From the NCBI GenBank assembly GCA_963662715.1, contig OY759724.1:30001-62000 (forward strand): DNA of 32,000 bases, written 5' to 3'. The stretch is from Candidatus Omnitrophota bacterium (lineage in GTDB: Bacteria > Omnitrophota > Gorgyraeia > Zapsychrales > JANLHA01). Of this stretch, positions 1-29,363 are shown piece by piece. Numbering within the stretch: the stretch's first letter is position 1; every line of letters starts with the position of its first letter. The notes under the pieces were generated by a model. That model did no database searches and had not been told where the DNA came from. It worked only from the letters and a program-made list of their open reading frames with translations. The position numbers were made by a program, and so were the translations under genes.

Positions 1-3000
1 CCTGCCAATTAACCCCCGTATCACTTAACACATTCAAATCCTGCCAGTTGATCCCTGCATCACTTAATACATCAATATCTGCCCAGTTGATCCCCGCATC
101 ACTTAATACATCTATGTCCAGCCAGTTGATCCCCGCATCACTCATCACATCGATGTCCAGCCAGTTTATCCCCGCGTCACTCATATCATTCACACTCACC
201 CAGTTAATCCCCATGTCACTCATCACATTCAAATCCTGCCAGTTAATCCCCGTATCCGATAGCACATCCAAATCTAACCAATTAATCCCCGTATCACTTA
301 AGACATCAATATCCAGCCAGTTGATTCCCGCATTCGTCATATCACTCATACTCACCCAGTTCATCCCCATATCACTCATCACATCTATGTCCAGCCAGTT
401 GATCCCCGCGTCACTCATATCATTCACACTCACCCAGTTAATCCCCATGTCACTCATCACATTCAAATCCTGCCAGTTGATCCCCGTATCCGAGAGCACA
501 TCCATATCCTGCCAGTTGATCCCCGCATCGCTCAGGATATCCAAGTCCAGCCAGTTGATCCCCGCGTTCGTCATATCACTCATACTCACCCAGTTCATCC
601 CGATATCACTCATCACATCGATATCCAGCCAGTTGATCCCCGCGTCACTCATATCATTCACACTCACCCAGTTAATCCCCATGTCACTCATCACATTTAT
701 ATCCTGCCAGTTGATCCCCGTATCCGAGAGCACATCTAAATCCTGCCAGTTGATCCCCGCATCACTCAGGATATCCAAATCCAGCCAATTGATCCCCGCA
801 TTCGTCATATCACTCATACTCACCCAGTTCATCCCCGCATCACTCATCACATCGATATCCTGCCAGTTGATCCCCGCATCACTTAAATCATTCATGCTCA
901 CCCAGTTAATACCCATGTCACTCATAACATTTATGTCCTGCCAGTTGATCCCCGTATCCGATAGCACATCTAAATCCTGCCAGTTGATCCCCGCATCACT
1001 CAGGATATCCAAGTCCAGCCAGTTAATTCCCGCGTTCGTCATATCACTCATACTCACCCAGTTCATCCCCGTATCACTCATCACATCGATATCCAGCCAG
1101 TTGATCCCCGCGTCACTTAAATCATTCACACTCACCCAATTGATCCCCATATCACTCATCACATTCAAATCCTGCCAGTTGATCCCCGTATCCGAGAGCA
1201 CATCCAGATCCTGCCAGTTGATCCCCGCATCGCTCATCACATCGATGTCCAGCCAGTTGATCCCCGCGTCACTTAAATCATTCACACTCACCCAATTGAT
1301 CCCTATATCACTCATCACATTTATGTCCTGCCAATTAACCCCCGCATCACTTAACACATCAATATCCGACCAGTTGATCCCCGCATCTGATAGGACATCC
1401 AAATCCGACCAATTGATCCCTGTATCTGAAATAACATCAATGTCCGACCAGTTGATCCCCGCGTCCGAAAGAACATCGATATCCAGCCAGTTGATCCCCG
1501 CGTTCGTCATATCACTCATACTCACCCAGTTCATCCCCATATCACTCATCACATCGATATCCACCCAGTTGATCCCCGCGTCACTTAAATCATTCACACT
1601 CACCCAATTGATCCCCATATCACTCATCACATTTATGTCCTGCCAGTTGATCCCTGTATCACTCAATACATCCATATCCTGCCAGTTAATCCCCGCATCA
1701 CTCATCACATCGATATCCAGCCAGTTGATCCCCGCATCACTTAAATCATTCACACTCACCCAGTTAATCCCCATGTCACTCATAACATTTATGTCCTGCC
1801 AGTTGATTCCTGTATCTGATAGAACATCCAAATCCTGCCAGTTGATCCCTGCATCGCTCATCACATCCAAATCCAGCCAGTTGATCCCCGTATCTGATAG
1901 AACATCCAAATCCTGCCAGTTTATCCCCGCATCACTCATCACATCGATGTCCAGCCAGTTAATCCCCGCGTCACTTAAATCATTCACACTCACCCAATTG
2001 ATCCCCATATCACTCATCACATTTATGTCCTGCCAGTTGATCCCTGTATCACTCAATACATCCAAATCCCGCCAATTAATCCCCGCATCACTCAGAGCAT
2101 TAATATCCTGCCAGTTGATCCCTGTATCACTCAATACATCGATGTCCAGCCAATTGATTCCTGTGTCACTTAACACATCGATATCCAGCCAGTTGATCCC
2201 CGCGTTCGTCATATCACTCATACTCACCCAGTTCATCCCCATATCACTCAGCACATCAATATCCTGCCAGTTGATCCCCGCGTCACTCAAATCATTCACA
2301 CTCACCCAATTGATCCCCGCGTCACTCATCACATTTATATCTGACCAGTTGACCCCTGTATCGCTCAACACATCCAGATCCAGCCAATTAATCCCCGTGT
2401 CACTCATCACATCTATATCCAGCCAGTTGATCCCCGCATCGCTTAAATCATTCACACTCACCCAGTTCACCCCCGCACTGCTCATCACATCGATATCCAG
2501 CCAATTAATCCCCGTGTCACTCATCACATCTATATCCAGCCAGTTGATCCCCGCATCACTTAACACATCGATGTCCTGCCAGTTGATTCCCGCGTCTGAG
2601 ATAACATCCAGGTCCAGCCAGTTAATCCCCGCATCACTCATCACATCGATATCCAGCCAGTTAATCCCCGCGTCACTTAAATCATTCACACTCACCCAGT
2701 TCACCCCGGCACTACTCATCACATTTATGTCCTGCCAGTTGATCCCCGTATCGCTCAACACATCCAGGTCCAGCCAATTGATCCCCGCGTCACTCAGCAC
2801 ATTAATATCCTGCCAGTTAATTCCCGCATCACTCAGCACATTAATATCCTGCCAATTGATCCCCGCATCACTTAACACATCGATATCCAGCCAGTTGATC
2901 CCTGCGTCACTCAAATCATTCACACTCACCCAATTAATCCCCATATCACTCATCACATCAATATCCACCCAATTAATCCCTGTATCTGAAAGAACATCCA

Positions 3001-6000
3001 GGTCCAGCCAGTTGATCCCCGCATCACTTAACACATCGATGTCCTGCCAGTTGATTCCCGCGTCTGAGATAACATCCAGATCCAGCCAATTAATTCCCGC
3101 ATCACTCATCACATCGATATCCTGCCAGTTGATCCCCGCGTCACTCAAATCATTCACACTCACCCAATTTACCCCGGCATTGCTCATCACATCAATATCC
3201 TGCCAGTTGATCCCCGCGTCACTCAATACATCCAAATCCACCCAATTGATCCCCGCATCACTCAGAACATTAATATCTGACCAGTTGATCCCCGTATCTG
3301 AGATAACATCCAGATCCAGCCAATTAATTCCCGCATCACTTAACACATCGATATCCAGCCAGTTGATCCCCGCGTCACTTAAATCATTCACACTCACCCA
3401 GTTGATCCCCATATCACTCATCACATTTATGTCCTGCCAGTTGATCCCCGTATCGCTCAACACATCCAAATCCACCCAGTTGATCCCCGCATCACTTAAG
3501 ACATCCAAATCCTGCCAGTTAATCCCCGTATCACTTAACACATCGATGTCCTGCCAGTTCACTCCGGCGTCACTCATCACATCAATATCCAGCCAATTGA
3601 TCCCCGCGTCACTTAAATCATTCACACTCACCCAGTTTACCCCGGCACTACTCATCACATTTATGTCCTGCCAGTTGATCCCCGTATCGGATAGAACATC
3701 TAAATCCTGCCAATTAATCCCCGCGTCACTCATCACGTCAACATCCTGCCAGTTGATCCCCGCATCACTCAGATCATTCACACTCACCCAGTTGATCCCC
3801 ATATCACTCATCACATCAATGTCCAGCCAGTTGATCCCCGCGTCACTCAAATCATTCACACTCACCCAATTTACCCCGGCACTGCTCATCACATCGATGT
3901 CCTGCCAGTTGATCCCCGTATCTGACAGAACATCTAAATCCTGCCAGTTAATCCCCGCGTCACTCAACACATCAATGTCCAGCCAGTTAATCCCCGCATC
4001 ACTCAAATCATTCACGCTCACCCAATTAATTCCCATATCACTCAACACATCAATATCCAGCCAGTTGATCCCCGCATCACTTAAAATATTTAAATCCCTC
4101 CAATTGATTCCTGCGTCAGAGAAAACGTCCAAATCCTGCCAGTTAATCCCTACATCTGAAAGGACATCCAAATCCAACCAGTTGATCCCCGCATCACTTA
4201 ATACATCAATGTCCAGCCAGTTGATTCCCGCGTCACTCAAATCATTCACACTCACCCAGTTGATCCCCATATCACTCATCACATTTATATCCTGCCAGTT
4301 GATCCCCACATTCGTCATATCACTCATGCTCACCCAGTTCATCCCCATATCACTCATCACATTCAAATCCTGCCAGTTGATTCCCGTATCACTTAATACA
4401 TCCAAGTCCTGCCAGTTAATTCCCGCATCACTTAACACATCGATGTCCAGCCAGTTGATCCCCGCATTCGTCATATCACTCATACTCACCCAGTTCATCC
4501 CCATATCACTCATCACATCAATGTCCTGCCAGTTGATCCCCGCATCACTCAAGTCATTCATACTCACCCAGTTGATCCCTATATCACTCATCACATTTAT
4601 ATCTGACCAGTTGATCCCCGTGTCACTTAACACATCCATATCCGACCAGTTGATCCCCGCATCACTTAAGACATCTATGTCCAACCAGTTAATCCCCGCA
4701 TCCGTCATATCACCTATGTTTATCCAATTCACCCCCGCATCACTCATCACATCGATATCCTGCCAGTTGATCCCCGCGGCACTCAAATCATTCACACTCA
4801 CCCAGTTGATCCCCGCATCTGATAGAACATTCAAATCCGACCAATTAATTCCTGTGTCTGAGAGAACATCAATGTCCAGCCAGTTGATCCCCGCGTCACT
4901 TAAGACATCGATGTCCAACCAGTTCATCCCCGCATTCGTCATATCACTCATACTCACCCAGTTCATCCTTGCATCACTCATCACATCAATGTCCAGCCAG
5001 TTGATCCCCGCGTCACTTAAATCATTCACACTCACCCAATTGATCCCCGCGTCACTCATTTCATTAATGTCCGACCAATTGACTCCCGTATCACTTAACA
5101 CATCCCAATCCAGCCAGTTGATCCCCGCGTCACTCATCACATCGATATCCAGCCAGTTGATCCCCGCATCGCTTAAATCATTCACACTCACCCAATTGAT
5201 CCCCATATCACTCATCACATCAATATCCTGCCAATTGATCCCTGTGTCTGAAAGCACATCCAGGTCCAGCCAGTTGATCCCCGCCTCACTTAACACATCA
5301 ATGTCCAGCCAGTTGATCCCCGCCTCACTTAACACATCCAAATCCAGCCAGTTGATCCCCGCGTCACTCATCACATCTATATCCAGCCAGTTGATCCCCG
5401 CGTCACTCAAATCATTCACACTCACCCAGTTAATCCCCATGTCACTCATAACATTTATGTCCTGCCAGTTGATCCCTGTATCACTCAACACATCCAAATC
5501 CCGCCAATTAATCCCCGCATCACTCAGAGCATTAATATCCTGCCAGTTGATCCCTGTATCACTCAATACATCGATGTCCAGCCAATTGATTCCTGTGTCA
5601 CTTAACACATCGATATCCAGCCAGTTGATCCCCGCGTTCGTCATATCACTCATACTCACCCAGTTCATCCCCATATCACTCAGCACATCAATATCCTGCC
5701 AGTTGATCCCCGCGTCACTCAAATCATTCACACTCACCCAATTGATCCCCGCGTCACTCATCACATTTATATCTGACCAGTTGACCCCCGTATCGCTCAA
5801 CACATCCAGATCCAGCCAATTAATCCCCGTGTCACTCATCACATCTATATCCAGCCAGTTGATCCCCGCATCGCTTAAATCATTCACACTCACCCAATTA
5901 ATCCCCATATCACTCATCACATTTATATCTGACCAGTTGATCCCCGTGTCTGAAAGTACATCCAGGTCCACCCAGTTGATCCCCGCATCACTTAACACAT

Positions 6001-9000
6001 CGATGTCCAGCCAGTTGATCCCCGTATCTGAGATAACATCCAGGTCCAGCCAGTTAATCCTTGCATCACTCATCACATCGATATCCTGCCAGTTAATCCC
6101 CGCGTCACTTAAATCATTCACACTCACCCAGTTTACCCCGGCACTACTCATCACATCGATGTCCTGCCAGTTGATCCCCGTATCGCTCAACACATCCAGG
6201 TCCAGCCAATTGATCCCCGCGTCACTCAGCACATTAATATCCTGCCAGTTAATTCCCGCATCACTCAGCACATTAATATCCTGCCAATTGATCCCCGCAT
6301 CACTTAACACATCGATATCCAGCCAGTTGATCCCTGCGTCACTCAAATCATTCACACTCACCCAGTTCACCCCCGCACTGCTCATCACATCGATATCCAC
6401 CCAATTAATCCCTGTATCTGAAAGAACATCCAGGTCCAGCCAGTTGATCCCCACATCACTTAACACATCGATGTCCTGCCAGTTGATTCCCGCGTCTGAG
6501 ATAACATCCAGATCCAGCCAATTAATTCCCGCATCACTCATCACATCGATATCCTGCCAGTTGATCCCCGCGTCACTCAAATCATTCACACTCACCCAAT
6601 TTACCCCGGCATTGCTCATCACATCAATATCCTGCCAGTTGATCCCCGCGTCACTCAATACATCCAAATCCACCCAATTGATCCCCGCATCACTCAGAAC
6701 ATTAATATCTGACCAGTTGATCCCCGTATCTGAGATAACATCCAGATCCAGCCAATTAATTCCCGCATCACTTAACACATCGATATCCAGCCAGTTGATC
6801 CCCGCGTCACTTAAATCATTCACACTCACCCAGTTGATCCCCATATCACTCATCACATTTATGTCCTGCCAGTTGATCCCCGTATCGCTCAACACATCCA
6901 AATCCACCCAGTTGATCCCCGCATCACTTAAGACATCCAAATCCTGCCAGTTAATCCCCGTATCACTTAACACATCGATGTCCTGCCAGTTCACTCCGGC
7001 GTCACTCATCACATCAATATCCAGCCAATTGATCCCCGCGTCACTTAAATCATTCACACTCACCCAGTTTACCCCGGCACTACTCATCACATTTATGTCC
7101 TGCCAGTTGATCCCCGTATCGGATAGAACATCTAAATCCTGCCAATTAATCCCCGCGTCACTCATCACGTCAACATCCTGCCAGTTGATCCCCGCATCAC
7201 TCAGATCATTCACACTCACCCAGTTGATCCCCATATCACTCATCACATCAATGTCCAGCCAGTTGATCCCCGCGTCACTCAAATCATTCACACTCACCCA
7301 ATTTACCCCGGCACTGCTCATCACATCGATGTCCTGCCAGTTGATCCCCGTATCTGACAGAACATCTAAATCCTGCCAGTTAATCCCCGCGTCACTCAAC
7401 ACATCAATGTCCAGCCAGTTAATCCCCGCATCACTCAAATCATTCACGCTCACCCAATTAATTCCCATATCACTCAACACATCAATATCCAGCCAGTTGA
7501 TCCCCGCATCACTTAAAATATTTAAATCCCTCCAATTGATTCCTGCGTCAGAGAAAACGTCCAAATCCTGCCAGTTAATCCCTACATCTGAAAGGACATC
7601 CAAATCCAACCAGTTGATCCCCGCATCACTTAATACATCAATGTCCAGCCAGTTGATTCCCGCGTCACTCAAATCATTCACACTCACCCAGTTGATCCCC
7701 ATATCACTCATCACATTTATATCCTGCCAGTTGATCCCCACATTCGTCATATCACTCATGCTCACCCAGTTCATCCCCATATCACTCATCACATTCAAAT
7801 CCTGCCAGTTGATTCCCGTATCACTTAATACATCCAAGTCCTGCCAGTTAATTCCCGCATCACTTAACACATCGATGTCCAGCCAGTTGATCCCCGCATT
7901 CGTCATATCACTCATACTCACCCAGTTCATCCCCATATCACTCATCACATCAATGTCCTGCCAGTTGATCCCCGCATCACTCAAGTCATTCATACTCACC
8001 CAGTTGATCCCTATATCACTCATCACATTTATATCTGACCAGTTGATCCCCGTGTCACTTAACACATCCATATCCGACCAGTTGATCCCCGCATCACTTA
8101 AGACATCTATGTCCAACCAGTTAATCCCCGCATCCGTCATATCACCTATGTTTATCCAATTCACCCCCGCATCACTCATCACATCGATATCCTGCCAGTT
8201 GATCCCCGCGGCACTCAAATCATTCACACTCACCCAGTTGATCCCCGCATCTGATAGAACATTCAAATCCGACCAATTAATTCCTGTGTCTGAGAGAACA
8301 TCAATGTCCAGCCAGTTGATCCCCGCGTCACTTAAGACATCGATGTCCAACCAGTTCATCCCCGCATTCGTCATATCACTCATACTCACCCAGTTCATCC
8401 TTGCATCACTCATCACATCAATGTCCAGCCAGTTGATCCCCGCGTCACTTAAATCATTCACACTCACCCAATTGATCCCCGCGTCACTCATTTCATTAAT
8501 GTCCGACCAATTGACTCCCGTATCACTTAACACATCCCAATCCAGCCAGTTGATCCCCGCGTCACTCATCACATCGATATCCAGCCAGTTGATCCCCGCA
8601 TCGCTTAAATCATTCACACTCACCCAATTGATCCCCATATCACTCATCACATCAATATCCTGCCAATTGATCCCTGTGTCTGAAAGCACATCCAGGTCCA
8701 GCCAGTTGATCCCCGCCTCACTTAACACATCAATGTCCAGCCAGTTGATCCCCGCCTCACTTAACACATCCAAATCCAGCCAGTTGATCCCCGCGTCACT
8801 CATCACATCTATATCCAGCCAGTTGATCCCCGCGTCACTCAAATCATTCACACTCACCCAGTTGATCCCCATATCACTCATCACATCAATATCCTGCCAG
8901 TTGATCCCTGTATCACTCAACACATCCAAATCCCGCCAATTAATCCCCGCATCACTCAGAGCATTAATATCCTGCCAGTTGATCCCTGTATCACTCAATA

Positions 9001-12000: not shown

Positions 12001-15000
12001 GATCATTTATGCTTACCCAATTAATCCCTCTGGCACTCATCACCTCAATATCAACCCAATTAATTCCCGTATCGCTTAAAACGTCCAGATCTTTCCAATT
12101 AATGCCGGTATCGCTTAGGATGTCAATATCGAGCCAGTTAATTCCCGCCCCACTCAAATCACTTAAATTGGTCCAATTGATCCCCCGGTCAGTTAAAACA
12201 TCGATATCTTTCCAATTAACCCCGGCATCACTCAGCACATCGATGTCCAGCCAGTTGATCCCTGCGTCACTCATATCATTAATGCTCACCCAGTTCATTC
12301 CTTGTTCGCTCAGGACCCTGACATCATCCCAATTAATCCCTGTATCACTCATCACATCTATATCCAGCCAATTAATGCCGGCATCAGACATATTCGCAAT
12401 GTTATCCCAATTAACTCCTGAAGAGGCAATCTCATCCCATCCTGTCCAATTTACATTCGCATCACTTAGGATATCAATATCCTGCCAGTTGATCCCCGCA
12501 TCACTCAAGATATCAAGATCGGCCCAGTTAATTCCGGCATCACTTAAAATATCAACATCCTGCCAGTTAATTCCGGTATCGCTCAGCACATCAATGTCCA
12601 GCCAGTTAATTCCGGATTCAGACAGGACCTGAATATCATCCCAGTTGACATTCGCGTCTGTCATATCACGAATGTTATCCCAGTTAACTCCCTGGATATC
12701 TATGGCCATATTTTCCAAATTCTCCCAATTAATTCCCGCGGAAGACAAATCCCCAAAATTATCCCAGTTAATACCGGCGGTCGTCATTTCCTCCAAACTG
12801 CTCCAGTTAACTCCCTGGACATCTATGGCCATTTCCTCTAACTCCGTCCAGTTGATCCCGGACGAAGACATTTCAGAAATATTCATCCAGTTAACATTGG
12901 AATTGGCCATATCCGCTAAACCCACCCAGTTAACTGCGGATTTACTGATTTCTTCAAGGGCAATCCAGTTCACCCCGGCTTCGGCCATATCAGCAATACT
13001 GTCCCAGTTGATTCCGGAGGTGGACATTTCTTCTATGTTTTCCCAATTCACCCCTTGAATATCAATAGCCATATTTTCCAGTTCCACCCAATTAATCCCC
13101 GCATCAGTCATCTCGGCCAAATTCATCCAGTTCACCCCGGCATCTGACAAGACATCAATAGCCGACCAATTGACACCCGCATCACTCAATACATCGATAT
13201 CCAGCCAGTTGATCCCCGCGTCGGACAAATCATTAATACTTATCCAGTTGATCCCCGCATCACTCAATACAGCGATATCATCCCAATTCACAGCTGAAGT
13301 CGCCAGATCATCCAAACCCGCCCAATTCATTCCGGCTGTACTTAATTCCGCGAGATCCGCCCAGTTCACACCGGCTGTTGACAGTTCATTAAATTCCGTC
13401 CAATTAATCCCGATATCGCTCAACACATCCAAATCCCGCCAGTTGATCCCCGCGTCACTCAGCGCATTGATATCCAGCCAGTTGATCCCCGCATCAGAAA
13501 GAACATCGATATCTTTCCAGTTAATGCCGGTATCAGAAAGGACGTCAATATCTTTCCAGTTAATGCCGGCCTCTGATAAAGCATTAATGTTTGTCCAATT
13601 AATGCCGACAGTACTTAACTCGGCGATATCATCCCAATTCACACCTGTCGTAGCGAGATCATCTAATCCGGTCCAGTTTACTCCGGCATGACTTAAAGCG
13701 GCAATGTCCTCCCAGTTGACACCAGCTGTAGATAATTCGTTAAATCCAACCCAGTTGATCCCAGTGTCACTCAACACATCCAGATCCAGCCAGTTGATCC
13801 CCGCATCAGTTAAGAGATCCAAATCCCGCCAGTTAATCCCGGCATCACTCAAGGCATCTAAATCCGCCCAATTAATGCCCGACATAGACATCTCCGTCAG
13901 ATTCGCCCAATTCATCCCCGATAAGGATAAAACACCGAAATCATACCAGTTGACTTCCGCTTTACTCATGATCTCCAGATCATCCCAGTTAAGGCCAACT
14001 TCCGACATGACAGTAAGATCTTCCCAATTCACTCCAGCGGTTGTCAGTTCCGCCAGATTATCCCAATTGATTGTTTCACTCCAATCCACGCCTGCTCCGC
14101 TCATATACGCTATATCAAACCAATTGACTCCGGCGTCACTCATAAATTCCATATCCTCCCAATTGATACCGGCCTCCGTCATGACCGTAATATCTTCCCA
14201 GTTGATCTGAGCCGCGGCCATTGAGTAGACATTTGTCCAATTGACCTGACTCGTCGTCATGACTTCCATATCATCCCAATTAACATCATCCAGGGCATCA
14301 GCAGACGATCTTATTGAAGAGAGGTCCGACATCAGAACCCCTATGTCATCCCAGTTGATCGTGTCTGTCTTGGATTTAATTTCCGTAATGTCCGTCCAGT
14401 TAATCGTATCGGTTTTGGCTTTGATATCCGTCACATTGGTCCAGTTGATGGACGATGTGTCGACTAAGATGTCGTTCACATCCTGCAAAATAGCAAACTG
14501 CGTCAAGTCATAGGTGTCATAGCTTGTATATGTCTGACTGCGGGCGTCGTAATAAATCAAGACCTCGGCAAAATAAGAAGAATCAAAATCAGGACTGTCC
14601 GCTGACCAGGCATAACTGAAAACATTGCTGGAAGGTGTTCCAAAATCTCCGGTTGAAATGGCTTTCTCAAGGGTCCCGTCCGGCTCGTAAATGTTGACAG
14701 CACAGGTATCGCTGGCCCCCAAAGTCACCCGGCCTTCGGACCCTTCCAGCCAGCACTTCACATACAGGTCCCCGTTGGAGTCGTCATAAACAACCGTGGA
14801 CATCGGAGTCGTACAGGGTTCAACGGTGAAAGCGGCGGTGGTATCGGAGATATAACCGCTTGCTGTCGCCTGCAAGGTATATCCCACTCCGGGGACAGGG
14901 ATTTGCAAATCGGTAAAAGTCGCCACACCGGAACCGTTTGTCGTCACGGTAGTCGTCCCGATCAGTGAAGAGCTTCCCGGATTTGACAAAATAGCAATAG

Positions 15001-18000
15001 TGACATCCACTCCCGAAGCAGAGTCGCTCGTGCTGACAATCGGCTGGTTTTCCAATAACTGACAAGAGAAAGAGGTCGTCGGCTCCTGGGTAAAGGTTAA
15101 GGTTTTATCCTCCATGGTGAAGGTTTGCACCGCGCTCCAGTCTCCCGGGACATCGGCCTCGCCAGAACCGCCGTCATGCGCCGTATCCCAGAAACGGATC
15201 CGCCAGTAATACGTTGAGCCGTCTATGGACAAAGCTGTTCCGGCATAAGAGACATCGTTCATTCGTGTGTTTTCGGTGACATCACTTCCCGTATCGGTTT
15301 TCCCGGTGTCCCACATGCGTGTGCCGTCAAAGGTATTGGCCGTGTCAACCTCAATCTCATAATAGGAACAGTCATCGGTGTCCGGATCATCACAGATGGC
15401 GGAGAACTCCGGGGTGGTGTCCGTCACGTCGGTCACGGGAGTCACAGAGCCCTCACAGTAAGGGGTGAGCGGAGCAGAAGCCACCTCATTGGTGACTTCA
15501 TCCGCCCCGATATCCGGGGATGTTCCGTCCCGGGCGTCCGCATCGATATCATCCGTAACAGGCAGATTGGCGTCACTGTCCAGATCTGTTCCGTTGGTCC
15601 CCCATAAGGTCAAACTATCGTGACGAAGGTGCAAATCTGTCGAGGTTGCTCCGGCTTCATAAAAATAGTCCGTATAATCCGTTTCATTGGTCTGGCTGCC
15701 GGTTCCGGAAGCCGTGGCATCAGATGACACATTATAAGACTGGGTGATTGTGCCGTTGAAACAAGCCTCGCTTCCATTCGTACTGTTTACTTCGCCGCAG
15801 GAAGAGTTTCTTACCGTCATCGTTCCGCTGACATTGTCGATCCCACGGGCATAACCCGTACTGCCGGTGTTGTTGATCGCATGAAGCGTGAGGTTGTGCA
15901 GATAATAAGTATCACCGCCAGATGCGGCTAACAGCCCGACAATGTTCGAGCTTGCATTCGTTGAGAGGTTTGTCATATCGTAAATTATCGTATTGCGAAC
16001 CTTCAGGTTCCCGTCATTTATAACAATCCCTCTCACATTGCTGGCGTCGGTGTCATCTGTCGTAGAGTTATCCAGATCATGAATGATGGCTTTACTGATC
16101 TGAATATCGGAACTGCTGTCGCTGATGGCGGCATTCAGCGAAATCCCATCAAGGTTTTCCGCATTCGTAATCTGTGATCCGTCTATCTCTATGCCTTCGA
16201 TACGGACATAATCATCGGATATATCAATGACCGAATAAGGATCGCCCGGGCTGGAATTCGAAGGCTGAATCACGACTCCCGTCCCTTCTTCACCGGTATG
16301 CCGCTGTGAGCTGCCGACCTCCGAGGATAAAGACGGGGCGAACATCCGGATATAATGAGTGCTGTCCGTCGTATAGCCGTCAATCGTCAACTGCGCGCCA
16401 GAGCCATCGGCCCCGTCAAACACGCCGTCAGAATACAAAACCCAGTTCAGCTGGACGTCCGCACCGGCAGAGGTCAGATCCGCGCTGTTGAGGTAACTCC
16501 CCCCGGATGAATTCGATTCCGCGGAGGAAAGCGTGTTAAACGCGCGGCTAATAGACGTGACGGCCGTGCTTGACAGATCTGACGGGACGGCGCCCGTGGC
16601 TGTTGTCACGGTATAAACCGTCGAAGACTGCCGGCTCTGAATATAATAAGTATTTCCCCCGGCGACGAGTTCGTCTCCGGCCCCGACATCATCCGCCTGA
16701 GCGGCAGTAAATTCGGCTGTATGATTGGTGATCGTGACGTTGGGAGAACCGCTTGTCAGATCACCCGTATCCGTTCCGACAGAATAATAGACTTCCACGA
16801 CCGGTTCGATAGAAAGATACGGACGATCAGAGGCGGAAGACGCGTCTTGGCTATGTATGCTGACATACTCGGCGCCCGATGGAGAGGTTCCGCTAACGTC
16901 CCTGTCGGACAAGAGGGCATAGAGGGTACTGCCGCTGGTGGAAACATAGGAGGTGTCAAGGCTTTGGGAAGAATAATAAACACCTGTCGACATCCCGGAC
17001 GTCCCGCGCCAGTCGGCGTCATACGTGCTGGCCAACGCCCCGTCAAAATTTGATTCTTGATATGAAGCGATCGGACTCGACCAACTGTATTGATGTATCC
17101 GGGCTGTAAAATCCGTTGTGGAGGCATCTGTGTTCGCTTTAAGATACAAATGAGCCCTGGCCGGAGCGGCGGATAAAGACGATGTGTCAAAAGACAAATA
17201 AGCCCGGTGGACATCATATACAAGGCCGGCGGTAAAATTCTGCCCGACTAAAAAAGTGGCTCCGGAATCATCGCTCGAGGACGATGAGTTACGGGCCTGC
17301 GTATAAGAGGGGTCCTGTCCCGAAATATATCCGTCCGCCGAATTCCCGTAAAATGTATCGGGATCAATCTGAACAGGATAAGCGGCATTTTTAAACCAGT
17401 CTAAGGGGAACTGAACCGAGACACAGAACGCATGCTCCTCCGAAGACGGCTGAGTTGATGTGTCTTTTCCCGTATCCGGAAGAGGGCTGAGGATAAATTG
17501 CCCGTAAACCTTTTCCCCGTTGGCATCTATGGCAACAGGCTTTTTCCACCACCATAAAACTTTTTTCTCCTCATCCACAAAATCCACATGCGTCGTTACG
17601 GAAGGTTTTCTGTCATTCCAAATTTTGCCATCAAAGAGCAGCTCCAAATCCGTCGCAAAATGAAGCGTAAGGGAAAGAGCTGAACCGGCAGAAGGCTCAG
17701 CAGAACCGGACAAGGATAAAGAATCCAAAGATTCCACAGAGAGAATCTTGATGAAACGGACATCGCTGGGAGTATAACGGAAATTCAATCCCCGGCCGTA
17801 AGCCTCCGGCCATTCAATAAATCCGCCCCCGGAGACGATATCAAAGGGCTTATTGCTGACCTGCCCTGTAACGGGACGGGGCCTGGCCAGGATGTGTTGC
17901 GTTCTTTTTTCTGTATCATCTTCAGAAAAGTGAACAGAAAGAGGTCCCGGGACAGCTTCTAAATAATGGCCGTCTTTCTCCAGACGTAAAATTTTGTGTT

Positions 18001-18412
18001 CACCAAATGCTTTCTTAACATAAGCCCGGTAATCCGCATCGACCATTTGATAGGACCACGGAGGAGTTGCCGTGGTTACCGCGTCATAAGGCTGCCATCG
18101 GGTATCGATATCTTGCCAGGCGCCGTTTTTCTCATAATGAAGGTCTCCGGAGGAAACAATAATCTGCTCCTGCCCGTCCGGCCGAAGGAATGTTTTTGAA
18201 GATCGCGTGCGTTCTTCCGGGAGTTCGACAGAACCCTGCGGCAAGCCTTTGATATATTGATGCTCTGAAGAGGTGACGGGAAGGGGATCCGATTCTCTGC
18301 TGCCAGGATTCGCAACATAAGAAAACACTCTGGGCACAGAGAGGAGGTATAGTCCTAGTATTATTAATAGAACGTAGTTCTTATTATCAATTTTTAGAAA
18401 GGGTTGACGCAT
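1..18412 (-). CDS. Giant secreted repeat protein. The 5' end is complete and the 3' end runs off the window (at least 6137 codons here).
   Basis: Manual reverse-complement translation. The ATG is at 18412..18410, with an in-frame TGA 12 codons upstream (plus-strand tca at 18449..18451) and no other start codon between them. The N-terminus reads MRQPFLKIDNKNYVLLIILGLYLLSVPRVFSYVANPG. I translated codon by codon from 18412 to 14341 without a stop. Inside the array, the same frame (plus-strand triplets starting at positions = 2 mod 3) reads CCA (Trp) once per 39 nt. I checked the places where the plus-strand ORFs break (11642-11695, 13022-13200, 14222-14345) and found no TTA/CTA/TCA in phase. 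I did not verify every codon in 1-14340. All neighbouring genes are on the same strand. Confidence 0.85.
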   Translation of the reverse strand, partial: MRQPFLKIDNKNYVLLIILGLYLLSVPRVFSYVANPGSRESDPLPVTSSEHQYIKGLPQGSVELPEERTRSSKTFLRPDGQEQIIVSSGDLHYEKNGAWQDIDTRWQPYDAVTTATPPWSYQMVDADYRAYVKKAFGEHKILRLEKDGHYLEAVPGPLSVHFSEDDTEKRTQHILARPRPVTGQVSNKPFDIVSGGGFIEWPEAYGRGLNFRYTPSDVRFIKILSVESLDSLSLSGSAEPSAGSALSLTLHFATDLELLFDGKIWNDRKPSVTTHVDFVDEEKKVLWWWKKPVAIDANGEKVYGQFILSPLPDTGKDTSTQPSSEEHAFCVSVQFPLDWFKNAAYPVQIDPDTFYGNSADGYISGQDPSYTQARNSSSSSDDSGATFLVGQNFTAGLVYDVHRAYLSFDTSSLSAAPARAHLYLKANTDASTTDFTARIHQYSWSSPIASYQESNFDGALASTYDADWRGTSGMSTGVYYSSQSLDTSYVSTSGSTLYALLSDRDVSGTSPSGAEYVSIHSQDASSASDRPYLSIEPVVEVYYSVGTDTGDLTSGSPNVTITNHTAEFTAAQADDVGAGDELVAGGNTYYIQSRQSSTVYTVTTATGAVPSDLSSTAVTSISRAFNTLSSAESNSSGGSYLNSADLTSAGADVQLNWVLYSDGVFDGADGSGAQLTIDGYTTDSTHYIRMFAPSLSSEVGSSQRHTGEEGTGVVIQPSNSSPGDPYSVIDISDDYVRIEGIEIDGSQITNAENLDGISLNAAISDSSSDIQISKAIIHDLDNSTTDDTDASNVRGIVINDGNLKVRNTIIYDMTNLSTNASSNIVGLLAASGGDTYYLHNLTLHAINNTGSTGYARGIDNVSGTMTVRNSSCGEVNSTNGSEACFNGTITQSYNVSSDATASGTGSQTNETDYTDYFYEAGATSTDLHLRHDSLTLWGTNGTDLDSDANLPVTDDIDADARDGTSPDIGADEVTNEVASAPLTPYCEGSVTPVTDVTDTTPEFSAICDDPDTDDCSYYEIEVDTANTFDGTRMWDTGKTDTGSDVTENTRMNDVSYAGTALSIDGSTYYWRIRFWDTAHDGGSGEADVPGDWSAVQTFTMEDKTLTFTQEPTTSFSCQLLENQPIVSTSDSASGVDVTIAILSNPGSSSLIGTTTVTTNGSGVATFTDLQIPVPGVGYTLQATASGYISDTTAAFTVEPCTTPMSTVVYDDSNGDLYVKCWLEGSEGRVTLGASDTCAVNIYEPDGTLEKAISTGDFGTPSSNVFSYAWSADSPDFDSSYFAEVLIYYDARSQTYTSYDTYDLTQFAILQDVNDILVDTSSINWTNVTDIKAKTDTINWTDITEIKSKTDTINWDDIGVLMSDLSSIRSSADALDDVNWDDMEVMTTSQVNWTNVYSMAAAQINWEDITVMTEAGINWEDMEFMSDAGVNWFDIAYMSGAGVDWSETINWDNLAELTTAGVNWEDLTVMSEVGLNWDDLEIMSKAEVNWYDFGVLSLSGMNWANLTEMSMSGINWADLDALSDAGINWRDLDLLTDAGINWLDLDVLSDTGINWVGFNELSTAGVNWEDIAALSHAGVNWTGLDDLATTGVNWDDIAELSTVGINWTNINALSEAGINWKDIDVLSDTGINWKDIDVLSDAGINWLDINALSDAGINWRDLDVLSDIGINWTEFNELSTAGVNWADLAELSTAGMNWAGLDDLATSAVNWDDIAVLSDAGINWISINDLSDAGINWLDIDVLSDAGVNWSAIDVLSDAGVNWMNLAEMTDAGINWVELENMAIDIQGVNWENIEEMSTSGINWDSIADMAEAGVNWIALEEISKSAVNWVGLADMANSNVNWMNISEMSSSGINWTELEEMAIDVQGVNWSSLEEMTTAGINWDNFGDLSSAGINWENLENMAIDIQGVNWDNIRDMTDANVNWDDIQVLSESGINWLDIDVLSDTGINWQDVDILSDAGINWADLDILSDAGINWQDIDILSDANVNWTGWDEIASSGVNWDNIANMSDAGINWLDIDVMSDTGINWDDVRVLSEQGMNWVSINDMSDAGINWLDIDVLSDAGVNWKDIDVLTDRGINWTNLSDLSGAGINWLDIDILSDTGINWKDLDVLSDTGINWVDIEVMSARGINWVSINDLSDAGINWLDIDVMSDMGINWADLDVLSDAGVNWMDINVLSDAGINWLDLDVMSDRAVNWLEIGELSTAGINWLDVGVMSTRNINWLGIYDLSLSGVNWQDINIMSEQGINWLSVYSMSAAGINWADIDVMSDRGVNWTGIDLMSKAGINWQDIDVLSDAGINWQDLDVFSDTGINWLDIDVMSSAGVNWVSVNDLSDAGINWLDIDVLSDRGINWTGINDLSDAGINWLDIDVLSDAGINWEDINVLSDTGINWRDIDVLSDVGMNWVSVNDLSDAGINWLDIDVLSDAGINWRDLDVLSDAGINWRDLDVLSDAGINWRDLDILSDTGINWTDIDVMSSAGVNWVSINDLSDTGINWLDIDVLSDVGINWVSVNDLSDAGINWADIDILSDTGINWKDIDVLADKGINWEDIDVLSDAGINWLDLDVLTDAGINWLDIDVMSDAGVNWDGLVDMANKGINWDSISDMSISGVNWLNLDEMTMSGINWDRIGEMSDSDINWLNIGEMSLKGINWDNITVMSEAGINWTDMGKMTINGINWMNIAELSSSGINWLDLDVLSDTGINWQDINVMSDMGINWVSVNDLSDAGINWLDIDVLSDAGINWLDLDVLSDTGINWQDINVLSDAGINWVDLDVLSDTGINWLDIDVMSSAGVNWVSVNDLSDAGINWLDIDVMSDAGINWLDWDVLSDAGINWQDLDVLSDAGINWLDLNVLSDTGINWLDIDVMSSAGVNWVSVNDLSDAGINWQDLDVLSDAGINWQDINVLSDAGINWQDINVLSDAGINWLDLDVLSDTGINWQDIDVMSSAGINWVSVNDLSDAGINWLDIDVLSDAGINWVDLDVLSDTGINWSDLDVLSDAGINWVDLDVLSDTGINWQDIDVMSDMGINWVSVNDLSDAGINWLDIGVLSDAGVNWQDIDVLSDTGINWQDIDVMSDMGINWVSVNDLSDAGINWQDIDVMSDMGMNWVSMSDMTNAGINWLDIDVLSDAGINWLDIDVLSDTGINWQDINALSDAGINWRDLDVLSDTGINWQDIDVMSDMGINWVSVNDLSDAGINWLDIDVMSDAGINWLDLDVLSEAGINWLDIDVLSEAGINWLDLDVLSDTGINWQDIDVMSDMGINWVSVNDLSDAGINWLDIDVMSDAGINWLDWDVLSDTGVNWSDINEMSDAGINWVSVNDLSDAGINWLDIDVMSDARMNWVSMSDMTNAGMNWLDIDVLSDAGINWLDIDVLSDTGINWSDLNVLSDAGINWVSVNDLSAAGINWQDIDVMSDAGVNWINIGDMTDAGINWLDIDVLSDAGINWSDMDVLSDTGINWSDINVMSDIGINWVSMNDLSDAGINWQDIDVMSDMGMNWVSMSDMTNAGINWLDIDVLSDAGINWQDLDVLSDTGINWQDLNVMSDMGMNWVSMSDMTNVGINWQDINVMSDMGINWVSVNDLSDAGINWLDIDVLSDAGINWLDLDVLSDVGINWQDLDVFSDAGINWRDLNILSDAGINWLDIDVLSDMGINWVSVNDLSDAGINWLDIDVLSDAGINWQDLDVLSDTGINWQDIDVMSSAGVNWVSVNDLSDAGINWLDIDVMSDMGINWVSVNDLSDAGINWQDVDVMSDAGINWQDLDVLSDTGINWQDINVMSSAGVNWVSVNDLSDAGINWLDIDVMSDAGVNWQDIDVLSDTGINWQDLDVLSDAGINWVDLDVLSDTGINWQDINVMSDMGINWVSVNDLSDAGINWLDIDVLSDAGINWLDLDVISDTGINWSDINVLSDAGINWVDLDVLSDAGINWQDIDVMSNAGVNWVSVNDLSDAGINWQDIDVMSDAGINWLDLDVISDAGINWQDIDVLSDVGINWLDLDVLSDTGINWVDIDVMSSAGVNWVSVNDLSDAGINWLDIDVLSDAGINWQDINVLSDAGINWQDINVLSDAGINWLDLDVLSDTGINWQDIDVMSSAGVNWVSVNDLSDAGINWQDIDVMSDARINWLDLDVISDTGINWLDIDVLSDAGINWVDLDVLSDTGINWSDINVMSDMGINWVSVNDLSDAGINWLDIDVMSDTGINWLDLDVLSDTGVNWSDINVMSDAGINWVSVNDLSDAGINWQDIDVLSDMGMNWVSMSDMTNAGINWLDIDVLSDTGINWLDIDVLSDTGINWQDINALSDAGINWRDLDVLSDTGINWQDINVMSDMGINWVSVNDLSDAGINWLDIDVMSDAGINWLDLDVLSEAGINWLDIDVLSEAGINWLDLDVLSDTGINWQDIDVMSDMGINWVSVNDLSDAGINWLDIDVMSDAGINWLDWDVLSDTGVNWSDINEMSDAGINWVSVNDLSDAGINWLDIDVMSDARMNWVSMSDMTNAGMNWLDIDVLSDAGINWLDIDVLSDTGINWSDLNVLSDAGINWVSVNDLSAAGINWQDIDVMSDAGVNWINIGDMTDAGINWLDIDVLSDAGINWSDMDVLSDTGINWSDINVMSDIGINWVSMNDLSDAGINWQDIDVMSDMGMNWVSMSDMTNAGINWLDIDVLSDAGINWQDLDVLSDTGINWQDLNVMSDMGMNWVSMSDMTNVGINWQDINVMSDMGINWVSVNDLSDAGINWLDIDVLSDAGINWLDLDVLSDVGINWQDLDVFSDAGINWRDLNILSDAGINWLDIDVLSDMGINWVSVNDLSDAGINWLDIDVLSDAGINWQDLDVLSDTGINWQDIDVMSSAGVNWVSVNDLSDAGINWLDIDVMSDMGINWVSVNDLSDAGINWQDVDVMSDAGINWQDLDVLSDTGINWQDINVMSSAGVNWVSVNDLSDAGINWLDIDVMSDAGVNWQDIDVLSDTGINWQDLDVLSDAGINWVDLDVLSDTGINWQDINVMSDMGINWVSVNDLSDAGINWLDIDVLSDAGINWLDLDVISDTGINWSDINVLSDAGINWVDLDVLSDAGINWQDIDVMSNAGVNWVSVNDLSDAGINWQDIDVMSDAGINWLDLDVISDAGINWQDIDVLSDAGINWLDLDVLSDTGINWVDIDVMSDMGINWVSVNDLSDAGINWLDIDVLSDAGINWQDINVLSDAGINWQDINVLSDAGINWLDLDVLSDTGINWQDINVMSSAGVNWVSVNDLSDAGINWLDIDVMSDAGINWLDLDVISDAGINWQDIDVLSDAGINWLDIDVMSDTGINWLDIDVMSSAGVNWVSVNDLSDAGINWLDIDVMSDTGINWLDLDVLSDTGVNWSDINVMSDAGINWVSVNDLSDAGINWQDIDVLSDMGMNWVSMSDMTNAGINWLDIDVLSDTGINWLDIDVLSDTGINWQDINALSDAGINWRDLDVLSDTGINWQDINVMSDMGINWVSVNDLSDAGINWLDIDVMSDAGINWQDLDVLSDTGINWLDLDVMSDAGINWQDLDVLSDTGINWQDINVMSDMGINWVSVNDLSDAGINWLDIDVMSDAGINWQDMDVLSDTGINWQDINVMSDMGINWVSVNDLSDAGINWVDIDVMSDMGMNWVSMSDMTNAGINWLDIDVLSDAGINWSDIDVISDTGINWSDLDVLSDAGINWSDIDVLSDAGVNWQDINVMSDIGINWVSVNDLSDAGINWLDIDVMSDAGINWQDLDVLSDTGINWQDLNVMSDMGINWVSVNDLSDAGINWLDIDVMSDTGMNWVSMSDMTNAGINWLDLDILSDAGINWQDLDVLSDTGINWQDINVMSDMGINWVSMNDLSDAGINWQDIDVMSDAGMNWVSMSDMTNAGINWLDLDILSDAGINWQDLDVLSDTGINWQDINVMSDMGINWVSVNDMSDAGINWLDIDVMSDIGMNWVSMSDMTNAGINWLDLDILSDAGINWQDMDVLSDTGINWQDLNVMSDMGINWVSVNDMSDAGINWLDIDVMSDMGMNWVSMSDMTNAGINWLDIDVLSDTGINWLDLDVLSDTGINWQDLNVMSDMGINWVSVNDMSDAGINWLDIDVMSDAGINWLDIDVLSDAGINWADIDVLSDAGINWQDLNVLSDTGVNWQ
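162..1214 (-). repeat. 234-bp (6-unit, 78-aa) higher-order repeat, about 4.5 copies
   Basis: The same ordered set of six unit variants recurs at 162, 396, 630, 864 and 1098. For example, 361-480 is near-identical to 595-714. Confidence 0.85.
2034..10339 (-). repeat. 3432-bp (88-unit, 1144-aa) higher-order tandem repeat: two full copies plus a diverged partial third
   Basis: Copies start at 2034, 5466 and 8898. The landmark 'tccctgta...ccaaatcccgccaattaatccccgcatcactcagagcattaatatcctg' occurs at 2041, 5473 and 8905. The block 3022-5431 matches 6454-8863; the antisense translation is identical throughout and the nucleotides were identical at the six places I spot-checked. The flanking mismatches are 3021 g versus 6453 a, and 5432 a versus 8864 g. 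Confidence 0.9.
10340..10651 (-). repeat. Island of 8 divergent 'x-x-I-x-E-M-S-x-x-G-I-N-W' units interrupting the uniform array
   Basis: Units translated in ascending plus-strand coordinate order: MNIAELSSSGINW, TDMGKMTINGINW, DNITVMSEAGINW, LNIGEMSLKGINW, DRIGEMSDSDINW, LNLDEMTMSGINW, DSISDMSISGVNW, DGLVDMANKGINW. They resemble the degenerate units at 12400-14400. Confidence 0.8.
14822..15100 (-). other. Ig-like (Big-type) domain
   Basis: The sequence reads LTFTQEPTTSFSCQLLENQPIVSTSDSASGVDVTIAILSNPGSSSLIGTTTVTTNGSGVATFTDLQIPVPGVGYTLQATASGYISDTTAAFTVEP. The 'G-x-A-T-F-x-x-L ... G-x-Y-T-L-x-A-T-A-x-G' pattern is typical of bacterial Ig-like domains. Confidence 0.4.
15110..15415 (-). other. 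FN3-like beta-sandwich (resembles the alpha-L-rhamnosidase N-terminal type)
   Basis: The sequence reads TPEFSAICDDPDTDDCSYYEIEVDTANTFDGTRMWDTGK...YAGTALSIDGSTYYWRIRFWDTAHDGG...WSAVQTFTM. I recall the 'YYWRVRVWD ... WS' motif from that domain type. Confidence 0.45.
15497..16800 (-). other. Right-handed parallel beta-helix (PbH1-like) region
   Basis: Repeated ~22-25 aa rungs are rich in N/I/G/T: ...DDYVRIEGIEIDGSQITN..., ...SDIQISKAIIHDLDN..., ...VRGIVINDGNLKVRNTIIYDM..., ...YYLHNLTLHAINNTGS..., ...GIDNVSGTMTVRNSS... The region ends with the typical cap ...TDLHLRHDSLTLWGTNGTDLDSD...DDIDADARDGTSPDIGADE. Confidence 0.6.
16805..17355 (-). other. Lectin-like (DNRLRE / CBM96-like) beta-sandwich module
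   Basis: The pattern is ...GATFLVGQNF...VHRAYLSFDTSSLSAAPARAHLYLKAN... ending in ...SQDASSASDRPYLSIE. It resembles the 'R-x-Y/L-L-x-F-D-L-S ... A-x-L-x-L ... (N/D)RP-x-L-x-V/I' signature of that family. No search was run. Confidence 0.4.
17360..18300 (-). other. N-terminal beta-rich module ending in a YPVQIDP motif
   Basis: The translation contains ...KKPVAIDANGEKVYGQF... and ...DWFKNAAYPVQIDPDTF. I recall the 'P-x-A-x-D-A-x-G ... YPVxIDP' pattern from the N-terminal regions of large secreted DNRLRE-type and wall-associated/RHS-type proteins. This is motif recall only. Confidence 0.35.
18332..18412 (-). other. N-terminal signal peptide or signal anchor of the giant protein
   Basis: A charged N-region (MRQPFLKIDNK) is followed by the hydrophobic stretch YVLLIILGLYLLSV. 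I cannot identify a cleavage site by eye. Confidence 0.55.
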
Positions 18413-18438
18413 AAAAACTATATTACAACATGAATCGG

Positions 18439-18462
18439 CCCAGAAACCTCATTCCCAGAAAC
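18439..18462 (-). promoter_or_regulatory. Direct repeat GTTTCTGGG x2 (15-bp period) upstream of the giant gene; possible operator or promoter element
   Basis: Plus-strand cccagaaac occurs at 18439..18447 and 18454..18462, which is 27-50 nt upstream of the ATG. No Shine-Dalgarno sequence is visible. A TAATAT hexamer lies about 8-13 nt upstream of the ATG on the minus strand. Confidence 0.2.
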
Positions 18463-18588
18463 GGAAAGACACCGGCTACCTGTCTCCTCAAACCGGAAAA
18501 GAACAAGCATCCCTGGCCATTCCAGCTTCTGAAAAATTTTTCTACGCCTTAATATAAGATAAAATTAAATTATTGTAACGTTATCACC

Positions 18589-20511: not shown

Positions 20512-20518
20512 GCAGGCA

Positions 20519-22195: not shown

Positions 22196-22929
22196 AAACG
22201 GACGTTCATCCTTTCCCCCATGTAGGAAAAATCTACGCTGTCTGCGTAAATCTTTTCAACTTTGACCCCAAGGAACTCCTCTCCTGTTTTCAGGAAATGA
22301 GTGACCTCTGTCTGATGATCTTCTATCATGACAGTTACCGAATCCGGCGACTCAAGCCAAGAAATTCCGACCAGCTTAAACTGATTGAGTTTCTCGGCAA
22401 TCAGTTGATTAGGCAGGACTTCTTCCACGGCTTCATCCACGACTTCCACCTTTCTTTCAAAAGGCTGAAAAATATTCCGATAAGAGACAAGACTCATATA
22501 TTCCGTAACATCTTTGACAATATTTTCAAGACGGCCGGCCAGGCCTTTTTGTGAGGATGTCAAAGCAGGAATCTCTACTTGAATGGATCTTTGGGCAGAC
22601 TTCATGCCTTTGCTGAAATCAGACACAAAATAGGCGCCCACAAGCAAAAGGGCAAAAAACAAAACTTTGTTTAATTCCCTGACGCTTAATGTCTGCGGTA
22701 TTTGAGCCATTGTGGCGGGATTCCGGATCAGCTGAAACAATTGTCCGATCCCGGATGGTAAAGTGAGCGTGCCCATCCCCAAACTTTGAACCGAATCCAA
22801 GGTCTTCTGCGCATCCGCATTGACCGAGGCAGCAGAGGAAGAGGACGGCGCAGCAGCAGAAGCGGGTTCCTGAGCTTCTGTGGCCTCAATGAGTTTGAGA
22901 AGTTTTTGTTCTGCAGTTTCTTTGGCCAT
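22192..22929 (-). CDS. Bitopic inner-membrane protein with a GspC/PilP-like (HR-type) C-terminal domain
   Basis: 245 aa. The N-region is low complexity and A/S-rich. There is one TM segment (VLFFALLLVGAYFV). The C-terminus LVGISWLESPDSVTVMIEDHQTEVTHFLKTGEEFLGVKVEKIYADSVDFSYMGERMNVRL matches the 'L-x-G-I ... A-x-I ... y-x-x-G-d-x-l ... v-x-x-I ... V-x-l ... g' pattern of secretin-binding domains. The stop is translationally coupled to the secretin start. Confidence 0.5.
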   Translation of the reverse strand: MAKETAEQKLLKLIEATEAQEPASAAAPSSSSAASVNADAQKTLDSVQSLGMGTLTLPSGIGQLFQLIRNPATMAQIPQTLSVRELNKVLFFALLLVGAYFVSDFSKGMKSAQRSIQVEIPALTSSQKGLAGRLENIVKDVTEYMSLVSYRNIFQPFERKVEVVDEAVEEVLPNQLIAEKLNQFKLVGISWLESPDSVTVMIEDHQTEVTHFLKTGEEFLGVKVEKIYADSVDFSYMGERMNVRL

Positions 22930-22965
22930 ATAATTAACTTAAATCATAACACCAATCAACGCTTC

Positions 22966-23901: not shown

Positions 23902-23929
23902 AGTTCTTTTAAAAAGGACTATAAATAAA

Positions 23930-25158: not shown

Positions 25159-25181
25159 ATTATTCGGGAGGTTATCTGTTT

Positions 25182-25838: not shown

Positions 25839-25888
25839 AACGGTTATCTTTTATTTTAAAAAAAGCACCCATGACAAAAACCGCAAAA

Positions 25889-29359: not shown

Positions 29360-29363
29360 CTTG

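Follow-up and report, generated by a model that had tools for sequence, protein, structure and literature searches.

Positions 1..18412, on the minus strand, of the 32,000-nucleotide stretch of contig OY759724.1 analysed here (positions 30,001 to 62,000 of the contig, called the window below) hold the 5'-terminal 18.4 kb of a true protein-coding gene from a Candidatus Omnitrophota bacterium. An earlier note, made from the letters alone, had proposed a giant minus-strand gene of at least 6137 codons, open at the window edge and missing from the accompanying list of open reading frames (ORFs). Translation of the reverse complement of 1..18412 does give 6,137 codons and 0 stops, starting from the ATG at 18412 and still open at position 1, with a mass of 672 kDa for the visible product (one peptide of which is DAGINWLDIDVMSDAGINW). 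No in-phase stop lies in 2..18409; the frame is stop-free from 18448 down to 2, or 6,149 codons, with ATG 18412 as its earliest start codon. The gene takes up 18,412 of the 32,000 window bases, the 58% that the note had given. Its product begins with an N-terminal signal and a head and continues, from amino acid (aa) 1319, as a very long array of a 13-residue repeat encoded by 39-bp units, the proximal, old part of which lies at 10354..14458 and the distal, young part at 1..10353, both on the minus strand.

The minus-strand frame and its antisense shadow

Throughout the non-repeat part of the gene (14447-18412) each of the other five frames carries 37-74 stops in its ~1,320 codons, so that the openness of the minus frame there is far beyond chance; inside the array, openness is weak evidence alone, because any stop-free 39-bp unit yields an open frame. 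The frame passes into the array without a shift, as had been claimed, and is continuous with an N-terminus of 1,320 aa that is 67% identical to the related protein P0001, 50% identical to P0021 (aa 21-1307) and 46-51% identical to P0002 (relatives are numbered here with P for proteins and L for loci). The ORF list shows a plus-strand frame at 48..11657 and lacks the giant gene because, by its own description, it leaves out ORFs that run off either end of the source, which bears out the technical explanation offered in the note. The gap of 176 bp ahead of the giant gene (18413-18588) has no obvious Shine-Dalgarno sequence before ATG 18412, and contains a short out-of-frame ATG..TAA just upstream of the gene.

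The minus frame is the coding strand and the plus-strand ORF at 48..11657 is a passive antisense shadow, not a gene. What favours a real gene there (product QLIPASL...), or coding by both strands, is its length, 3,869 codons without a stop in a frame that is stop-free over 3..11654 (3,884 codons). Such openness is, however, automatic: a stop arises in the plus frame only where a Tyr codon is preceded by one with T or C in third position, or a Gln or His codon by one with T there, and the distal array has 0 His, one Tyr (at its upstream border) and 83 of 83 Gln preceded by Trp (TGG), a pattern that accounts both for the open shadow and for its end at 11656. In all three segments a codon-usage model trained on 13 genes of the neighbourhood ranks the minus frame higher, scoring it at +0.15 (head), +0.13 (proximal array) and -0.03 (distal array) bits per codon, against -0.28, -0.24 and -0.44 for the shadow frame. 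The distal array is built of copies of a super-repeat, and the differences between these copies again argue for the minus strand, where the ratios of synonymous to nonsynonymous changes are 160:134, 219:161 and 83:37 and the replacements are conservative (mean BLOSUM62 +0.5 to +0.7), whereas in the plus frame the nonsynonymous to synonymous ratios are 173:139, 209:195 and, for copies B versus C, 49:71, and the replacements are non-conservative in all three comparisons (BLOSUM62 -1.0). None of 14 related arrays has a stop in its sense frame, and each has 2-53 in the shadow frame, so that the plus frame is broken in every one of them; it is also broken by 6 stops in the window's own proximal array, and the plus-strand product has no homologue outside the array. 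The chance that the plus strand codes here is negligible. A non-coding satellite of 39-bp units, or a pseudogene in decay, in which the long frame would be an accident, is very improbable too. The fact that any stop-free unit of 3n bp opens a frame irrespective of function speaks for such an accident, but the motif G-[IV]-N-W..[DN]-[IL]..[LM]-[ST] is maintained across arrays of 47% and 39% G+C that differ elsewhere, the differences between copies show a synonymous excess, 322 consecutive units are without an indel, and complete relatives of the repeat protein have intact termini. A strand test based on third codon positions was dropped; the shadow frame and the true frame share their third positions, and the test is therefore unable to separate the strands.

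Head, repeat array and relatives

Of the 369 NW anchors in the array, 361 stand at a spacing of exactly 13 aa, and the units make up 78% of the visible protein. Their consensus is D-[AT]-G-I-N-W-x-D-[IL]-[DN]-V-[LM]-S, and the core common to the family is G-[IV]-N-W-x-[DN]-[IL]-x-[VD]-[LM]-[ST]. Among the 361 units in register N5 and W6 are invariant and G3 is present in 345, and the units occur in 148 distinct peptide and 256 distinct nucleotide versions. The array as a whole is highly acidic, with a net charge of -871 and a pI of 4.05. There is no Pfam or NCBIfam model for the repeat, and nothing relevant to the 13-aa motif was found in the literature. Matches of the array to Ntox33, Lysostaphin_N, Dmc1 and phrog_35229 (in Pfam, NCBIfam and PHROGs) were discarded as repeat-driven artefacts, no stretch passing alone. 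Roughly every sixth unit has Asp or Glu in place of Val as its residue 11 (the W-V-S-V-N-D-L-S type), and the resulting sub-period of 78 aa (234 bp) could be either a structural superperiod or a record of duplication history.

Calcium binding was considered as a conserved property of the repeat and rejected, because the acidic positions 1 and 10 are replaced by K, E, G or R in L016, a second giant array described below. A small EF-hand calcium-binding protein with an N-terminal hydrophobic stretch is encoded in the window at 28934-29359 (minus strand), and is kept at the same place in L020; it may bear on the very acidic array, the acidity of which is not conserved in L016. Two further proteins, P0015 and P0016, have scattered xINW motifs at irregular spacing and match phage virion and tail-fibre PHROGs in other regions, which suggests that a short motif of the xINW type may be used in phage fibres too.

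The two parts of the array have different histories. The proximal part has divergent units with seven irregular spacings (15, 19 or 25 aa), and its units match those of L004 one-to-one up to about aa 2,150, after which the similarity is at the generic level of one unit to another. The distal part is made of a super-repeat of 3,432 bp (88 units, 1,144 aa), present in three full copies at 6866-10297, 3434-6865 and 2-3433 with pairwise identities of 85-96%, and the last 322 units of the array are those without an indel. Embedded in it are two exact copies of a 2,410-bp stretch, at 3022..5431 and 6454..8863, which lie one super-repeat period (3,432 bp) apart and have flanks only 80-90% identical; they are either the product of a duplication or gene conversion that is very recent, or an artefact of assembly. 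Growth of the array in this lineage was probably by tandem duplication of the 3.4-kb, 88-unit block, which makes the length of the stalk evolvable, with 28 to more than 369 units among the members of the family.

Among 5.8 billion clustered proteins the head has just two close homologues, and its best match is 67% identical. A HMMER scan of 1.84 billion representatives with one super-repeat as the query gave 327 proteins at E<=1e-3, of which 97 reach E<=1e-10. Most are fragments of 40-400 aa; the longest true members have 2,809 and 2,304 aa, and the majority of the 11 genome loci are labelled Candidatus Omnitrophota. The complete members, P0005 (1,292 aa), P0008 (868 aa), P0011 (900 aa) and P0021 (2,809 aa, locus L020), carry 20-75 units, versus at least 369 in the window. 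All four are like the window gene in their repeat, in the Big-like and small domains before the array and in their locus, and P0021 also has the fused head; with ~75 units and a head 50% identical to that of the window protein, it is the closest complete relative. The window protein in turn has the 13-aa tandem units with a GINW core that are found in L016 as well, an N-terminal signal followed by the Big-like and small beta-sandwich domains ahead of the array, and a gene that lies downstream of AAA_22, GspC-like, secretin and TPR genes. Each of the four complete members ends with ~200-250 aa of low-complexity, coiled-coil-like sequence and the tail VV(V/M)K(T/A/S)W(F/Y)E. By comparison with them we infer that the window protein would also finish, beyond the window, in a helical-looking, coiled-coil-like C-terminal module of ~250 aa with the conserved VVVKxWFE tail. 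The JGI metagenome collection, searched for a continuation up to the stop codon, does not contain the exact 30-mer of positions 1-30.

An independent array of giant size, L016, is carried by a metagenome contig of 125 kb and has one open frame of 5,205 codons and 387 regular units; its length of at least 15.6 kb is a lower bound, the array being cut at both ends of the stored stretch. It has 39% G+C, versus 47% in the array of the window, and shares the core motif. When L016 served as the query of a protein search, its own giant protein was not among the matches. Among the 13 fetched contigs with the array at a contig end, 10 end inside it (L001, L003-L010 and L012) and the other three (L017-L019) begin or are cut inside it, with L017 and L019 reaching the array end. 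The annotated P0001 (2,304 aa) stops in mid-repeat (L001 16880-16960) and the repeats resume in another frame up to the contig end, which is attributable to a frameshift in the L001 assembly or strain. Since contigs end in arrays, and since ORF callers that drop partial frames report the antisense shadow, the family is under-counted in databases. At L002 (109-9034) the head, P0002 (2,252 aa), and the repeat protein are encoded by separate adjacent genes, each with its own signal peptide, and the window gene, L001, L003, L004 and P0021 are for this reason taken to be fusions. P0002 also has a duplicated module B (the second region of the head, described next) and three FN3-like domains.

The N-terminus of the window protein (aa 1-31, 18320..18412, minus strand as for all features of the head) is a single hydrophobic segment with a possible signal-peptidase site, VFS/Y; P0021 has a similar site, ...ALFS/Q. 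In a Kyte-Doolittle scan of the 6,137 visible aa, only aa 12-34 exceed 1.6, the maximum elsewhere being 1.09. The segment may be either a cleaved signal peptide or, as the note had it, a signal anchor. Module A (aa 32-535, 16808..18319) is conserved in P0001, P0002 and P0021 and had no family match in the Pfam scan. Module B (aa 540-977, 15482..16795) is beta-rich and might possibly be a right-handed parallel beta-helix: it is 27% identical to P0003, which is itself a match to PF13229. It has no direct Pfam match of its own even at E<=1, an AlphaFold2 (AF2) model places beta strands only at aa ~712-892, with a predicted local distance difference test score (pLDDT) of 50-69, and the Foldseek matches of this module to pectate lyases and tailspikes are not significant. 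AF2 modelling of aa 23-1200 from 4 sequences reached a pLDDT of 35, and Foldseek with this model returned nothing at E<=0.001. An Ig/FN3-like domain follows (Pfam Ig_Rha78A_N, aa 987-1100, 15113..15454; E 7.3e-07, 29.9 bits, cut-off 27.4), which is the sole significant Pfam match in the head (aa 32-1310), and then a Big/Ig-like domain (aa 1105-1200, 14813..15100), which is common to the short family members P0012, P0006 and P0004; the matches of L005-L012 to the giant protein begin at residue 1105. Directly before the array, in every family member, is a small beta-sandwich-like domain (aa 1201-1310, 14483..14812), with weak CarboxypepD_reg and SpaA matches below cut-off. Sequence and profile searches of the PDB with the head, the array and P0008 gave nothing. 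The note had described about 1300 codons of recognisable extracellular modules; the N-terminal part is real, but only Ig_Rha78A_N is recognisable to Pfam.

Secretin locus, possible role and comparison with other giant proteins

Directly upstream of the giant gene, and likewise on the minus strand, are genes for a coiled-coil and TPR protein with a PilW/Tgl-like TPR (18589..20511), a PilQ/GspD/MshL-like secretin (20519..22195), a GspC-like protein (22192..22929) and an AAA_22 ATPase of the ExeA/GspA/MshM type (22966..23901), and ahead of these a conserved block of GT2, methyltransferase, DUF2304 and GT2 genes (24175..26985). The secretin carries a Secretin C-domain and Secretin_N (PF00263, E 1.6e-47; PF03958, E 3.8e-21), with PilQ, GspD and MshL NCBIfam scores all below cut-off. 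The GspC-like protein is a weak match whose orthologues carry PF11356 (T2SSC), the best NCBIfam match of the ATPase is to a PEP-CTERM-associated ATPase, below cut-off, and the TPR protein of the window is not on record. The block of ATPase, GspC-like, secretin and TPR genes precedes the repeat gene in all 11 loci with enough upstream DNA (the ATPase or the GspC-like gene being undetected in three of them), with secretin identities of 37-77% across loci, and L020 matches the window gene for gene from LipB through the repeat gene. In 5/5 loci that reach its 3' end, the repeat gene is followed by a conserved gene (L014 10610-11917, L015 11888-13255, L017 3965-5338, L019 1231-2604 and L020 16502-17785) whose product has 427-465 aa, a signal peptide and no match to any family, and may be a partner or anchor of the repeat protein. 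Next in related loci is an F-type ATP synthase operon, followed by PilZ, PilM/N or an MshEN-T2SSE ATPase; in L014, L015 and L020 an MshEN-T2SSE ATPase and PilM/N are found past the operon. In the genome of the window, too, the conserved gene and the operon would be expected beyond position 1.

We think it fairly likely that the product is a Sec-exported, acidic repeat fibre, a long tether or adhesin that is displayed via the secretin or type IV-pilus-like machinery encoded beside it. The protein would first be exported by Sec and would then pass through, or be displayed by, the neighbouring machinery, as a thin, highly acidic fibre whose beta-rich head of ~1,300 aa probably binds or cleaves glycans. 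The reach of the fibre would be set by the number of units, which would change by unequal recombination of 3.4-kb blocks, and the head would have been joined to the stalk by fusion of the gene that is still separate in L002. A tether or adhesin role would fit the attached, host-dependent lifestyle reported for Omnitrophota.

Several points weigh against this proposal. Expression, export and surface location are predictions, the stop codon and C-terminus lie outside the window, and the head has no significant family match beyond Ig_Rha78A_N and no significant structure match. No gene for a GspE/PilB ATPase, a GspF/PilC platform protein or a (pseudo)pilin is present in 18413-32000 of the window, and synteny is no proof that the secretin handles the repeat protein. 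The number of 3.4-kb blocks might be an assembly error, given the exact 2,410-bp duplicate. Finally, an AF2 model of 24 units (with 149 in-window segments aligned) has a 9-residue helix and a 4-residue loop per unit, at pLDDT 46, and the hydrophobic residues have their strongest periodicity at 138 degrees per residue, a value characteristic neither of a helix nor of a strand. That periodicity, and the alternation of I-N-W and I-D-V, would fit a tight two-stranded beta-solenoid with 13 residues per coil, which is a possible fold for the repeat. The unit also reads like a capped helix, with Asn as N-cap, Asp at N3, an Ile4/Ile9 hydrophobic staple and Gly at the Schellman C' position, according to textbook capping rules. 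Covariation within the unit is confounded by duplication history and does not discriminate helix from strand, Foldseek with the 24-unit model returned only designed helical toroids at TM 0.2, so that neither the model nor these matches are usable, and there is no PDB relative of the repeat by sequence or fold. A bolder idea, which we put forward as a long shot in all its parts together, is that the 13-residue unit is a new protein solenoid forming the cargo or fibre of a phylum-wide Omnitrophota attachment organelle. This would be a filament a few nm thick and hundreds of nm long, threadable through a dedicated secretin, either as a single chain or as an oligomer nucleated by the C-terminal coiled-coil-like module, and its length would be tuned by unequal recombination of kilobase-scale super-repeats.

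The gene could be real and yet its visible length inflated or miscounted by assembly, the 3.4-kb super-repeat existing in fewer or more copies than were assembled and the true protein being perhaps nearer 2,800 aa. The exact 2,410-bp duplicate is offset by exactly one super-repeat, the complete relative P0021 has only ~75 units, and the contigs of relatives break within the array, with a frameshift there in L001, all of which speaks for such a miscount; but outside the identical stretch the copies have 150-514 differing positions and so do not represent one collapsed or duplicated read path, the frame is maintained across 322 consecutive units with 0 indels, and an unrelated contig, that of L016, holds at least 387 regular units. 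Because of the differences between copies and the absence of indels we favour a real expansion, and judge a miscount to be rather improbable. A different kind of doubt concerns the place of the protein, which might be a structural component of the cell envelope or periplasm (a spacer, sheath or matrix) that is co-located with the secretin and not exported by it, the synteny mirroring co-regulation with envelope glycosylation and pilus genes. The conservation of GT2, DUF2304 and methyltransferase genes just upstream, the lack of pseudopilins and GspE/F in the window, and the fact that a folded protein of more than 670 kDa would be an unusual secretin cargo agree with this. On the other hand, a signal peptide, Ig-like domains, a beta-helix-like head and a long stalk are the architecture of extracellular fibrillar proteins, and the adjacency to GspC-like, secretin and TPR genes persists across loci whose secretins are 37-77% identical, and an envelope role appears to us unlikely.

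Taken as an exported fibre, the window protein may be compared with other giants. Omnitrophota proteins of up to 147,155 aa have been reported, and giant proteins of this phylum have been found beside type II/IV secretion genes, with a proposed role in attachment (bioRxiv 10.1101/2023.11.21.568195; 10.64898/2026.06.07.730766). The statement in the note that proteins of this size are rare in bacteria is thus right in general but not for Omnitrophota. Like the Archaeovorins and the Dockerin-type proteins (West-Roberts et al. 2023, bioRxiv 10.1101/2023.11.21.568195), the window protein comes from the same phylum, is encoded by a very long ORF of the kind that fragments assemblies, and has type II/IV secretion-like genes as neighbours; theirs are proposed to attach to or degrade other cells. 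Unlike the Archaeovorins, it has one N-terminal hydrophobic segment in its 6,137 visible aa, not many transmembrane regions, and no SecA-DEAD or HEAT matches (Pfam, NCBIfam); unlike the Dockerin-type proteins, it has no dockerin/EF-hand domains or thrombospondin type 3 repeats in Pfam scans of aa 1-2470. The repeat of 13 aa, with no family model, sets it apart from both, and the window's secretion module is small (ATPase, GspC-like protein, secretin and TPR protein) compared with the system of more than 10 subunits in bioRxiv 10.1101/2023.11.21.568195. Judged by these sequence features, it lacks what defines either group and is a different family within the general kind of Omnitrophota giant proteins. 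Giant genes in Omnitrophota are already known; the 13-residue repeat family is undescribed, and is seen here in its longest visible form.

In the survey of Nielsen & Lui 2026 (bioRxiv 10.64898/2026.06.07.730766) the tandem-repeat scaffold class comprises proteins of at least 10,000 aa built from copies of Pfam domains (TSP3, NHL, WD, HEAT); contig ends are said there to truncate such ORFs in metagenome-assembled genomes, and strict nucleotide tandems to be rare. As in that class, one repeat dominates the window polypeptide by copy number. The protein has at least 6,137 aa, its end lying outside the window, compared with the catalogue threshold of 10,000 aa, and, in contrast to the rarity of strict tandems in that survey, the window has 10 kb of super-repeat that is 85-100% identical. 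Because it has no Pfam or NCBIfam model, the repeat would fall in the 'dark-matter' fraction of that survey.

In outline, with a signal, a binding head, a long stalk that sets the reach and a terminal anchoring or export module, the window protein as proposed here is like S. aureus Ebh and the RTX adhesins MpIBP, LapA and SiiE, to none of which it has any sequence relationship. The stalks of these proteins are built of domains of ~100 aa, versus 13-aa units in the window, and RTX adhesins use type I secretion and have C-terminal nonapeptide repeats. There are no type I secretion genes in the window, and the complete relatives P0005 and P0008 and the L017 tail have no Pfam or other family matches, RTX repeats included. 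The outer-membrane modules of the MSHA/type IVa pilus and of type II secretion are MshL-MshM-MshN and GspA/ExeA-GspC-GspD, and the window resembles them in having a secretin, an AAA_22 ATPase, a TPR protein and a GspC-like protein in one strand-wise block. Unlike in those systems, all NCBIfam scores of the block are below the family cut-offs, and the repeat gene, a gene of no known family and the ATP synthase operon break up the block, with no pilin genes seen.

The attached or predatory way of life of Omnitrophota is believed to be mediated by giant surface proteins, but those described are heterogeneous and mostly unique in sequence. The repeat family differs in that it occupies one fixed locus across divergent lineages, beside a compact secretin module, and covers lengths from 868 aa to more than 6,137 aa through variation in just one simple repeat, and it therefore offers a tractable handle on the display of very long proteins. 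Its short complete members are open to expression and structure solving, and the repeat is simple enough for biophysics.

Neighbouring genes

The region between the TPR and repeat genes varies among relatives. In L005-L009, L012 and L014 (e.g. L014 4796-7991) it holds two tandem paralogues of ~520-610 aa, which have an FGE-sulfatase domain and a conserved ...GGRCARTAP C-terminus, and in L015 three small unannotated ORFs. An Rfam search found no RNA family in the window. Further from the giant gene, at 27113-27478 (minus strand) and beside an S41 peptidase, is an isolated ORF of 121 aa whose match to ATP synthase delta/OSCP is confined to the C-terminal half of the latter. The ORF is conserved in L001, but in related loci the complete ATP synthase operon is found downstream of the repeat gene.

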